Notes: a model not told the origin generated them from the sequence alone. Positions 61,081-62,915 are shown, counted from the first letter of the stretch. The stretch is DNA of 64,000 nucleotides from a phage (NC_101838.1); one strand, 5' to 3'. Program-made: numbers and translations.

Positions 61081-61323
61081 ATGTTTAAGGTTAAGCTCGT
61101 TTTTCGTTCCATGAATGAGGATTATTTAGAAGATGAAGGTGAATTTCGTGCACTGGATGATGCAATAGATTTTGCCAACGACTTAGCTTGTATGAATACG
61201 GGTTATGGGCTATGCTGTTGGGATGGTGGTGTTCAGATCGGTGATAGCAAGATCTTCTACTTCTACCCTGAGCCTGATAACAAACAAATTAAGTATGTTT
61301 TATTTATTTGTGCTTTACAATGA
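61081..61323 (+). CDS. hypothetical acidic protein (80 aa)
   Basis: ORF downstream of promoter. Confidence 0.45.
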   Translation: MFKVKLVFRSMNEDYLEDEGEFRALDDAIDFANDLACMNTGYGLCCWDGGVQIGDSKIFYFYPEPDNKQIKYVLFICALQ

Positions 61324-61379
61324 GGTTGTTTTCGTGTATCATGATGAATATCCAATTTAAAGATGAATTTGATGGCTTT

Positions 61380-61610
61380 ATCTCCGGATGCTTTGAAACA
61401 GGGTTCGGAGAAGGCTGAGTTCCCCTTAGAGGGCTTGATAGTGCACCACACTTAAAATGGTAGGGGCAGCCAGCACATGACGATGTGACCCCAGCCAACC
61501 TGTAATAAGGTCGAGCCAAAGTGCGGTAATGGGCTCTGGTAACCCACTTGTTGGGTCTTGCTGGTCCAGGACGCTGGACAAGTCGCAGGGAATACCACCC
61601 TGCGGCGAAC
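61380..61610 (+). ncRNA. candidate structured RNA / second GC-rich ORF-free island
   Basis: About 230 nt GC-rich segment where only overlapping minus-strand pseudo-ORFs appear; strand not established. Confidence 0.2.
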
Positions 61611-61639
61611 TTGACAATCAGTATTTGCTATGATAAAAT
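61611..61639 (+). promoter_or_regulatory. sigma70-like promoter (TTGACA-17-TAAAAT)
   Basis: Hexamers upstream of the ORF at 61668. Confidence 0.5.
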
Positions 61640-61667
61640 CCACCTATCACGTGATAATGGAGGAAAC

Positions 61668-62006
61668 ATGGCGGATACAACTAAAAAGCGTCGCCGTAGA
61701 GGCAGACCTCTGAAAGAGGAGTCCAACGCCATTCAGCTAGAGAAGAACATCCTTGATATGAAGGAATCTTTTATAGCGATGGTTCCAGAAGCTCACAAAG
61801 TTTTAAGAGAGCTGATGTTGGACCCGAAAACCAAACAAAATATTCGTCAAAGCATTGCAGAGTATGTTCTTGATAAGGCAGACCGAATGCAGGAAGAATA
61901 TGATGAGATGTTTGGTGAAGAGGAAGAGGTGGTAGTAGAAGAGGCTGAAAAACCAGCACCTTTTATGCCATTCACCACAGAAATACAGCCTGTTGGCAAT
62001 AGTTAA
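61668..62006 (+). CDS. hypothetical protein with basic AT-hook-like N-terminus (112 aa)
   Basis: Internal ATG with aatggaggaaac SD; KKRRRRGRPLKEE N-terminus, acidic C-terminus. Confidence 0.5.
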   Translation: MADTTKKRRRRGRPLKEESNAIQLEKNILDMKESFIAMVPEAHKVLRELMLDPKTKQNIRQSIAEYVLDKADRMQEEYDEMFGEEEEVVVEEAEKPAPFMPFTTEIQPVGNS

Positions 62007-62015
62007 AATATTTTC

Positions 62016-62044
62016 TTGACAAACTTTGCTTAACAGTGTAATAT
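62016..62044 (+). promoter_or_regulatory. sigma70-like promoter for the tRNA cluster (TTGACA-17-TAATAT)
   Basis: Consensus hexamers about 60 nt upstream of the first tRNA. Confidence 0.55.
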
Positions 62045-62102: not shown

Positions 62103-62177
62103 GCCCTGTTAGCTTAGTGGATAAAGCAGCGGCCTTCTAAGCCGTTGACACTGGTTCGAGTCCAGTACGGGGTGCCA
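62103..62177 (+). tRNA. tRNA-Arg (anticodon UCU)
   Basis: Manual cloverleaf fold: 7-bp acceptor, D-arm agtggata, anticodon loop cuUCUaa, T-loop ttcgagt, encoded CCA. Confidence 0.85.
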
Positions 62178-62181
62178 AATT

Positions 62182-62268
62182 GGGGAGTTATCCCGTAGAG
62201 GTAGCGGTGTAGACTGTAAATCTATTGTCATTGCGACTCGGGTGGTTCGACTCCACCACTCCCCACCA
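62182..62268 (+). tRNA. tRNA-Tyr (anticodon GUA)
   Basis: Perfect 7-bp acceptor (ggggagt/actcccc), anticodon loop cuGUAaa, long variable arm, T-loop ttcgact, encoded CCA. Confidence 0.8.
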
Positions 62269-62382
62269 AATTTATATTTTTAGATGCATAAATAATACAG
62301 ATAATGGCATTGATATTTATCGTCGTTTATACTAGTCACTAACTGCTCGAAAATCAGTGTCATTATCAGTATTATTTATAAA

Positions 62383-62473
62383 GGAGGGTAGGGAGCAATG
62401 GTGCTCAAGCGGTCTTGAAAACCGTCCCGTTGAGGATGACTCGATGATGGTTCGATTCCATTACTCTCCGCCA
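62383..62473 (+). tRNA. tRNA-Ser (anticodon UGA)
   Basis: Acceptor ggagggt/actctcc, anticodon loop cuUGAaa, long variable arm, T-loop ttcgatt, encoded CCA. Confidence 0.8.
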
Positions 62474-62571
62474 CATTGTTGACCTTGTAATTAAGCGAAA
62501 GTCGGAAGCAGAACCGGATTATCAAATGTTACAGTCGTCATCGCCGACTAGCAACATGGTCAACATACTGA

Positions 62572-62670
62572 GCTAGGTAAGCCCTTTGGCAAGGGCGAGG
62601 ATTTTTAATCCTGAAAATAGACGAGGTAGTCGTTGAATACATAGGTGGTTCGATTCCATCACCTAGCACC
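62572..62670 (+). ncRNA. aberrant tRNA-like element (about 97 nt) lacking a canonical anticodon arm
   Basis: Good acceptor (gctaggt/acctagc), D-arm and T-arm (ggtgg-ttcgatt-ccatc), but the region between holds two 5-bp/5-nt-loop hairpins instead of a 7-nt anticodon loop. Confidence 0.35.
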
Positions 62671-62675
62671 TTTTT

Positions 62676-62751
62676 GCTGATGTAGCACAATCGGTAGTGC
62701 AATTGATTTGTAATCAATAGGTTGTAGGTTCAAGTCCTGCCATCAGCACCA
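62676..62751 (+). tRNA. tRNA-Thr (anticodon UGU)
   Basis: Acceptor gctgatg/catcagc, anticodon stem attga/tcaat with loop uuUGUaa, encoded CCA. Confidence 0.8.
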
Positions 62752-62752
62752 A

Positions 62753-62827
62753 GGCCCTGTAGCTGGAAGGTTCAAGCAAGCGACTCATAATCGCCAGACG
62801 GTGGTTCAATTCCACCCAGGGCCACCA
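62753..62827 (+). tRNA. tRNA with CAU anticodon (Met or lysidine-Ile)
   Basis: Acceptor ggccctg/cagggcc, anticodon loop cuCAUaa, T-loop ttcaatt, encoded CCA. Confidence 0.75.
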
Positions 62828-62838
62828 AATAGTAAATA

Positions 62839-62915
62839 CTCCGCGTAGCTCAGCTTGGTAGAGCGCCTGATTTGGGATCAGGAGGTCGAGTGTTCGAATC
62901 ACTCCGTGGAGACCA
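62839..62915 (+). tRNA. tRNA-Pro (anticodon UGG)
   Basis: Acceptor ctccgcg/cgtggag, canonical D-arm agctcagcttggtagagc, anticodon loop uuUGGga, T-loop ttcgaat, encoded CCA. Confidence 0.85.

Follow-up and report, generated by a model that had tools for sequence, protein, structure and literature searches.

An apparently undescribed, non-canonical tRNA-like element in the tRNA cluster of rV5-type phages

Bacteriophage T4 produces two small stable RNAs, species 1 and 2 (rnaC and rnaD), that are not tRNAs and are co-transcribed and co-processed with the T4 tRNAs. In Escherichia coli, the identity set read by LysRS consists of UUU and A73, and tRNA-Lys normally has a short variable loop. Phage tRNAs have been found to neutralise PARIS, PrrC, retron-Eco7 and Septu, and it has been suggested that they serve as decoys (PMC11464382, PMC11555353, PMC13096335, PMC10264068); it is the tRNA-Lys of T5 that counters PARIS (PMC11464382). 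The Bacillus cereus tRNA-Other is a pseudo-tRNA with a regulatory role, reported to be inactive in translation (PMC3399842). Nematode nev-tRNAs (PMC3333845) and allo-tRNAs join a long-variable-arm scaffold to an anticodon mismatched to its usual identity; both keep a 7-nt anticodon loop and decode. Here, we describe an element of an rV5-type phage that shares features with each of these systems and also with class II tRNAs.

The analysis covered a stretch of 64,000 nucleotides of the phage record NC_101838.1 (the window), which belongs to Vequintavirus (rV5-like coliphages) and whose 1-kb tRNA region is 99.8% identical to those of phages isim, nimi and CarlMeissner. ARAGORN reported seven genes at 62103-62915 of this region, in the order Arg(UCU), Tyr(GUA), Ser(UGA), the element, Thr(UGU), Met/Ile2(CAU) and Pro(UGG). 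An earlier note had placed an aberrant 97-nt tRNA-like element at 62572-62670 inside the cluster. ARAGORN has a gene at exactly these positions, on the + strand between tRNA-Ser and tRNA-Thr, which it labels tRNA-??? with the anticodon (atcc), and the RF00005 alignment counts 97 nt from G1 to the discriminator. The distance to tRNA-Thr is 5 nt, and spacings to bona fide tRNAs in the clusters are 2-5 nt. A hairpin in the preceding spacer (62474-62571) is not significantly structured (z = -1.55). The ARAGORN tmRNA search found no tmRNA in the window, and the element had no tmRNA match in Rfam.

Two of the neighbouring genes deserve a comment in their own right. Some records call the CAU tRNA (62753-62827, +) tRNA-Met, those of BASEL tRNA-Ile (codon ATA); it is probably a lysidine-dependent tRNA-Ile2. 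The tRNA-Ser(UGA) gene (62383-62473, +) is atypical: it has A8, like the element, its best Rfam match is tRNA-Sec at 41.5 bits (cut-off, 47), and according to the rV5 genome paper it was missed by tRNAscan (PMC3606486).

Table 1. Parts of the element, and the predicted promoter of the tRNA cluster, in window coordinates.
Feature	Position	Strand	Evidence and remarks
Sigma-70-like promoter TTGACA-17-TAATAT, predicted; upstream of the tRNA cluster	62016-62044	+	Consensus scan, 10/12 matches
Acceptor stem, 5' strand GCUAGGU, pairs with 62661-62667	62572-62578	+	Rfam, MFE, covariation
Positions 8-9 (AA)	62579-62580	+	Alignment invariants; comparison with neighbouring tRNAs
D arm, stem GCCC/GGGC, loop UUUGGCAA	62581-62596	+	Rfam, MFE, covariation
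G26, between D stem and anticodon-like stem	62597-62597	+	Invariant in alignment
Anticodon-like arm, 5-bp stem AGGAU/AUCCU, 5-nt loop UUUUA	62598-62612	+	Rfam, MFE, covariation
Anticodon-like arm, alternative: 4-bp stem, 7-nt loop UUUUUAA	62598-62612	+	Rfam
5' junction strand GAAAAUA	62613-62619	+	G44 and AAA invariant, next A nearly invariant
Variable-arm hairpin GACGA-GGUAG-UCGUU	62620-62634	+	Pairing kept, sequence varies by lineage
3' junction strand GAAUACAUA	62635-62643	+	AUAC core conserved
T arm GGUGG-UUCGAUU-CCAUC	62644-62660	+	Rfam, MFE, covariation
Acceptor stem, 3' strand ACCUAGC	62661-62667	+	Rfam, covariation
Discriminator A73, then CC, then U: incomplete CCA	62668-62670	+	Comparison with lineages and neighbours

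The minimum free energy (MFE) structure of the element (-34.2 kcal/mol, z = -3.66; none of 200 shuffles equally stable) contains a 7-bp acceptor stem, a D arm, a T arm with the loop UUCGAUU and two extra hairpins, the first of which zips on to 6 bp with a UUU triloop. The Rfam tRNA model RF00005 matched 62572-62668 with 35.5 bits (E = 5.2e-05; gathering threshold, 29 bits), with one anticodon-stem position deleted, a U-A pair opened and an insertion of 26 nt accommodated in the variable region. In the RF00005 reading, the anticodon region is a 4-bp stem AGGA/UCCU carrying the loop UUUUUAA and the anticodon UUU. The canonical acceptor, D and T arms described in the earlier note were recovered by MFE, RF00005 and covariation alike. 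The two small hairpins that it saw are both present in the MFE structure, but they do not replace the anticodon region: the first occupies the place of the anticodon arm and the second is an oversized variable arm. Its suggestion of a tRNA carrying a small insertion holds insofar as RF00005 aligns the 26-nt insertion; this insertion is an ancient covarying arm, however, and the anticodon loop is abnormal as well.

Like class II tRNAs (Leu, Ser and Tyr; RF00005), the family to which the element belongs has a 7-bp acceptor stem, a 4-bp D stem, a 5-bp T stem with the loop UUCGAUU, covariation between positions 19 and 56, a helix in the variable region and a setting in polycistronic tRNA clusters. 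It differs from them by an unconserved anticodon loop of 5-6 nt, by a variable region of 31-41 nt and by invariant A8/U14 and G26/G44. The first of these pairs is swapped with respect to canonical tRNAs, which have U8/A14, and the second frames the anticodon-like stem, in the place of the normal 5-bp anticodon stem. In the variable region, the hairpin stands between conserved A-rich single strands, with 5-9 unpaired conserved nt on each side across the family. At 31 nt, the variable region of the element is larger than those of the two long-arm tRNAs of the window (Rfam alignment) and, to our knowledge, exceeds those of known bacterial long-arm tRNAs. The AUAC core of the 3' junction is kept even in the most diverged copies (ACGAAAUA in that of locus L061), a conservation that is partly owed to the search patterns. 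An antisense role of this conserved strand was rejected: its complement occurs seven times in the window at two mismatches or fewer, with 6.7 occurrences expected.

BLAST and pattern scans yielded 30 distinct full-length homologues after trimming, from Vequintavirinae (five genera), Stephanstirmvirinae, one N4-like podovirus and metagenomes. In Vequintavirus and Avunavirus, 128 records matched the element by sensitive BLAST. The element is at least 99% identical across 91 records, and the BLAST homology ends at its edges (query 13-108, corresponding to 62572-62667). Further carriers were found in Seunavirus, Mydovirus, Henunavirus and, within Stephanstirmvirinae, Justusliebigvirus, and IMG/VR and metagenome contigs also hold copies. 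Salmonella phage UTK0002 (Schitoviridae) has a copy with 88.5% identity to one from Henunavirus, a sign of horizontal transfer. A structure-anchored family pattern had no match in 185,579 bacterial and archaeal genomes, and we rejected a bacterial or prophage origin because this search came back empty-handed. Pairwise scores were 25-51 within the family and did not exceed 21.5 when its members were set against 305 canonical phage tRNAs or against tRNA-Lys and tRNA-Gly of E. coli; among these, none stands out as isotype of origin or closest canonical paralogue. The element is not mentioned in the rV5, BASEL, Certrevirus and other genome papers, nor in the papers on phage tRNAs and defence. Taken together, the family is apparently undescribed, conserved, horizontally mobile and of a non-canonical tRNA-like type.

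Gene finders and covariance models cope unevenly with this family. ARAGORN misses the seven non-rV5 loci scanned, and among the Rfam matches listed for the rV5 copy and five orthologue copies, the rV5 copy alone is above the RF00005 threshold. For the Av-05, GE_vB_MG and Erwinia copies, RF00005 was absent from the matches listed and the best match was a sub-threshold tRNA-Sec, and the FENT2 and L061 copies had no Rfam match at E <= 0.1. The element and the orthologues tested matched nothing in Rfam except tRNA and tRNA-Sec, so that no dedicated family was found. With tRNA-Sec (RF01852) the orthologues scored 29.3-37.6 bits (cut-off, 47), and ordinary long-arm tRNAs likewise draw sub-threshold tRNA-Sec matches. 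A tRNA-Sec identity was rejected: the acceptor and T stems have 7/5 pairs, not 8/5 or 9/4, and in place of UCA and G73 the window copy shows a UUU loop and A73. GenBank labels vary accordingly: the BASEL records have tRNA-Lys (codon AAA), other records tRNA-Stop(tta), tRNA-TERM, tRNA-OTHER or tRNA-???(atcc), with an ochre-type label (tta) in JLBYU08 and tRNA-sup(tca) in phage Hena1, and in some records, rV5 itself included, the element is unannotated. It is missing from the six tRNAs listed in the rV5 genome paper (PMC3606486).

Several observations were made on the surroundings of the element and on the records that carry it. In UTK0002, an unannotated long-variable-arm tRNA-like sequence ending in CCA (L064, ~2400-2496) lies a few nt upstream of the transferred element. 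In V18 (L005, 754-845) and O157 typing phage 4 (L006, 745-835), we found chimeras made of a 5' tRNA-Tyr part and a 3' part of the element, joined in the variable arm or the T loop, with tRNA-Tyr, tRNA-Ser and the element deleted; tRNA clusters thus recombine between paralogous arms. Eighteen "Campylobacter phage" records (GenBank MG0656xx) are 99-100% identical to E. coli rV5-like phages here; mislabelling or contamination of the assemblies is the probable cause. At 61668-62006 (+), immediately before the rV5 tRNA cluster, lies the gene of a 112-aa protein (phrog_3330) with an AT-hook-like N-terminus (KKRRRRGRP) and no Pfam match, named "putative regulatory protein" in one record. A clear homologue (L027, 2378-2737) is found inside the FENT2 tRNA cluster, and ORFs of similar size occupy the same place in Mydovirus, Seunavirus and Henunavirus clusters, a likeness of size and position alone. 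Conserved as phrog_3330 is beside or inside tRNA clusters, nothing in these data links it to the RNA of the element. All the neighbouring ORFs are PHROGs of unknown function without an informative Pfam match, and no linked protein partner emerged. Further upstream, a GC-rich non-coding stretch (61340-61665; GC 0.55, flanks ~0.40; fold z = -2.41), with a promoter-like site at 61314-61342, had no Rfam match. It contains a 43-nt core (61491-61533, CCAGCCAACCTGTAATAAGGTCGAGCCAAAGTGCGGTAATGGG) that is ~88-98% identical to unannotated sequence in hundreds of T4-like genomes; in T4 GT7 the counterpart lies between denV and vs.8 and reaches the downstream start codon. This core may represent a regulatory or mobile module, of RNA or DNA, that these phages share.

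We then examined covariation. Since the MAFFT alignment was wrong in the variable arm and in the anticodon-like stem, we worked with register-fixed concatenated alignments of the structural segments instead of a covariance model. In these segments, 99.1% of the cells are paired and 13 of 22 pairs have changed on both sides; the covariation score was 0.492, compared with 0.195 in shuffles (none of 500 reached it) and at most 0.105 in slid registers. All seven acceptor-stem pairs form in the 30 homologues, five of them with both sides changed, and such changes affect 3/4 pairs of the D stem, 3/5 of the anticodon-like stem and 1/5 of the T stem. The variable-arm stem, defined with no fitting by the five bases that adjoin the fixed flanks GAAAAUA and GAAUACAUA, covaries in all five pairs and is 93% paired, a score that none of 500 shuffles reached. 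The 19:56 pair, which joins the D-loop G (column 18) to the T-loop C, is G-C in 17 sequences and U-A in 4, and this covariation is consistent with the elbow contact between D loop and T loop in an L-shaped fold. Covariation in five helices and in the 19:56 pair therefore points to a selected, L-shaped RNA and speaks against the pseudogene that the earlier note had entertained, the element being kept in at least six genera and three phage groups with compensatory changes in these helices and the tertiary pair. We regard it as very probable that the element is a structured, selected, non-canonical tRNA-like RNA.

The loop at the anticodon position is not conserved. It reads UUUUA in Vequintavirus, UUAUA in Avunavirus, AUCAA in Henunavirus, Stephanstirmvirinae and UTK0002, and CAUCCA, CAGCCA, CCUCCA, CUUCCA or CCUCAA in Seunavirus and Mydovirus. 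Of 21 distinct sequences, 10 close the loop with U-A and 7 with C-G, the remaining 4 having no pair there, and the covariation-backed 5-bp stem leaves a loop of 5-6 nt in 17. The earlier note had found no 7-nt anticodon loop. In the closed form, favoured by covariation, the window copy has a 5-nt loop, as claimed; nevertheless, the 7-nt loop UUUUUAA can be drawn in it by opening the U-A closing pair, with a stem of 4 bp. The comparative data favour the closed 5-bp form over the open 7-nt loop. If a 7- or 8-nt loop is drawn nonetheless, A or C stands at position 33 in most lineages, which is at odds with the canonical combination of a 5-bp stem and a 7-nt loop with U33 and purine 37. The putative anticodon differs among orthologues (UUU, UAU, UCC, GCC and UCA), and relatives carrying the element also hold a normal tRNA-Lys(UUU) and tRNA-Gly(UCC). 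The unconserved "anticodon" and the covarying closing pair argue that the family is not a decoder, and these comparisons make a non-decoding tRNA mimic the likely nature of the element and its family. In this respect it departs from the nev-tRNAs and allo-tRNAs, since the family has no normal loop. A specific partner is suggested by the invariant AUCAA loop and by the strong conservation of the junction strands.

What else could such an RNA be? A recoding tRNA would be a UGA suppressor (Henunavirus-type loop CAUCAAA), an ochre suppressor (tta) or a quadruplet or frameshift decoder (8-nt loop CCAUCCAG), as the labels tRNA-sup(tca) and tta, the 4-base call of ARAGORN and the 7-8 nt loop obtained by opening the closing pair would have it. 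It is highly improbable: position 33 is A or C in those lineages, not the near-universal U, the orthologues share no consistent codon, and the closing pair covaries. The ARAGORN fold itself, with the stem AUUUU/AAAAU and the 4-base anticodon AUCC, was rejected, its pairing partners being absent from other lineages. Decay into a functionless tRNA pseudogene, at least in the rV5 lineage, would agree with the degenerate CCA, the variable hairpin shorter than in other lineages, the disagreement among annotation pipelines and the loss of the element from V18 and O157 typing phage 4 via deletions and Tyr-element chimeras. This loss indicates that the element is dispensable at least under some conditions. 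Against decay stand the strong covariation in the family, the near identity in the 91 records, the sharp limits of the homology and two fully compensatory changes between Vequintavirus and Avunavirus (acceptor A4:U69 to G:C and a variable-stem A:U to G:C), which together leave a pseudogene very unlikely. A third alternative starts from the acceptor end. In staphylococci, a non-proteinogenic tRNA-Gly serves cell-wall synthesis, and the GlyRS acceptor identity set resembles U73, G1:C72, C2:G71 and CCA. An aminoacyl carrier charged through such acceptor-end identity would donate its amino acid outside the ribosome. U73-CCA is encoded in all copies outside rV5 and Avunavirus, C2:G71 is invariant, G1:C72 occurs in 19 of 21 sequences, many loops contain UCC or GCC, and some relatives encode a CCA-adding enzyme (PMC7344957). 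Yet G1:C72 and C2:G71 are common among many tRNAs, no candidate transferase was found among the ORFs neighbouring the tRNA clusters, and the window copy has lost U73 and the full CCA. We hold such a carrier to be quite improbable and the family's resemblance to tRNA-Gly (U73, C2:G71, UCC or GCC in the loop) to be a lead only.

The main alternative is a genuine, architecturally aberrant tRNA-Lys(UUU), in which the loop UUUUUAA would open, LysRS would charge the RNA through U34-U36 and A73, and the host CCA enzyme would finish the 3' end; it would supply AAA/AAG decoding and might resist nucleases, as T5 tRNA-Lys does against PARIS. RF00005 passes its threshold with the anticodon UUU. The distal 11 nt, GA-UUUUUAA-UC, agree with the stem-loop of E. 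coli and phage tRNA-Lys (NNUGA-CUUUUAA-UCANN) at 10 of 11 positions. UUUUUAA and A73 occur together in the rV5 lineage only, the LysRS set of UUU and A73 thus being confined to it, and rV5-type phages have no other tRNA-Lys, which the relatives with non-Lys loops do have. Like the tRNA-Lys(UUU) of T5, the element is phage-encoded in a tRNA cluster, and phage tRNA-Lys is a proven counter-defence (PMC11464382). The BASEL records carry the label, and the methods of the BASEL paper name tRNAscan-SE (PMC8594841). The standard tRNA call that the earlier note had set against its own reading is therefore on record nominally, but it needs the 4-bp stem, and the orthologue loops are non-canonical. UUU stands at positions 34-36 solely in the open-loop reading, where keeping five pairs would bring a G-G mismatch and leave no nucleotide 26. 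Only 3-5 nt of loop remain in the MFE structure, and covariation of the closing pair extends across the family. In phage tRNA-Lys genes the anticodon arm is a normal 5-bp stem with a 7-nt loop and the variable loop is short, whereas the element has a 31-nt variable region and a non-canonical A8/U14 core. Its tRNA body shows no kinship to E. coli tRNA-Lys (score 10.5-11.5, versus 25-51 within the family). The rV5 copy ends in A73-CC-U and leaves CCA unencoded, as opposed to all six canonical tRNAs of the window. In the sister lineage Avunavirus, the corresponding triplet is UAU with U or C at position 73, and the other orthologues are not Lys-like either. A working tRNA-Lys is, on balance, unlikely.

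The Lys-like stem-loop, A73 and the lack of any other tRNA-Lys indicate that the rV5 lineage has moved towards likeness to tRNA-Lys, be it as a real tRNA or as a mimic. Since the Lys-like loop is confined to Vequintavirus (Avunavirus has UUAUA, others AUC(A/C)A), a Lys-directed role cannot be ancestral. We favour, with a probability of roughly 45%, the reading that the element is the rV5-lineage member of a phage-specific tRNA-like family and acts as a tRNA-processed mimic or decoy, possibly against defences that target tRNA-Lys. The element and the tRNAs would be included in one polycistronic transcript from the predicted promoter. RNase P and 3' trimming would excise the element like its neighbours, giving a stable RNA of ~97-100 nt; such tRNA-like processing is suggested by its embedding 2-5 nt from bona fide tRNAs and by the preserved acceptor/T-arm module. 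The RNA would decode no codons; as a tRNA mimic, it would take up some tRNA-binding factor or draw it away. The anticodon-position hairpin of the rV5 lineage would have been reshaped into a near copy of the tRNA-Lys anticodon stem-loop, and the discriminator changed to A73. This near copy makes host factors that recognise tRNA-Lys the likeliest targets there, for example the anticodon nucleases PrrC and RloC or the PARIS nuclease AriB, to which the RNA could be a bait or decoy or a spare, uncleavable ligand. A decoy role against tRNA-targeting defence, drawn from the likeness to the tRNA-Lys stem-loop and from literature precedent, is put forward tentatively. UUU, A73, the position in a tRNA operon and the lack of another tRNA-Lys suit a working tRNA-Lys equally well.

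Among the options raised in the earlier note, a tRNA-like stable RNA comparable to those of T4 is best supported, as an analogy. T4 species 1 and 2 have a similar setting in a phage tRNA cluster, whereas the element is a complete cloverleaf, and sensitive BLAST gave no sequence relation to T4: no T4-like or Tequatrovirus record was among the 128 matched. The Bacillus cereus tRNA-Other is likewise tRNA-shaped and labelled "tRNA-Other" by gene finders (PMC3399842); it is bacterial and chromosomal, unlike a family whose pattern has no match in prokaryotic genomes. A wider form of the mimic reading, which we find possible and somewhat doubtful, is that these are mobile phage tRNA mimics, matured as tRNAs and never decoding, which may serve as RNA decoys for, or inhibitors of, tRNA-binding factors of host immunity or regulation. 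The anticodon hairpin would then be an exchangeable bait, Lys-like in rV5-type coliphages facing PrrC, RloC and PARIS and AUC(A/C)A elsewhere, and the conserved A-rich junction and variable arm would form a recognition module specific to the family.

Sequenced phages that carry the family number well over 200; therapy candidates are among them, as are phages of the tractable BASEL collection. The family has been transferred between unrelated phage families, and pipelines overlook it or enter it as Lys, stop-suppressor, "other" or "???". Such annotations need correcting, as "tRNA-Lys" or "suppressor tRNA" is misleading in therapeutic phage genomes. The family would also bear on how far a tRNA scaffold can be remodelled, given the A8:U14 swap, the U19:A56 elbow, the 5-nt anticodon loop and the variable region of 31-41 nt. 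Counter-defence through phage tRNA genes has been recognised only recently, and this family would add a purely structural tRNA mimic; at best, it would allow RNA-level mimicry in the conflict between phage and host to be tested directly.
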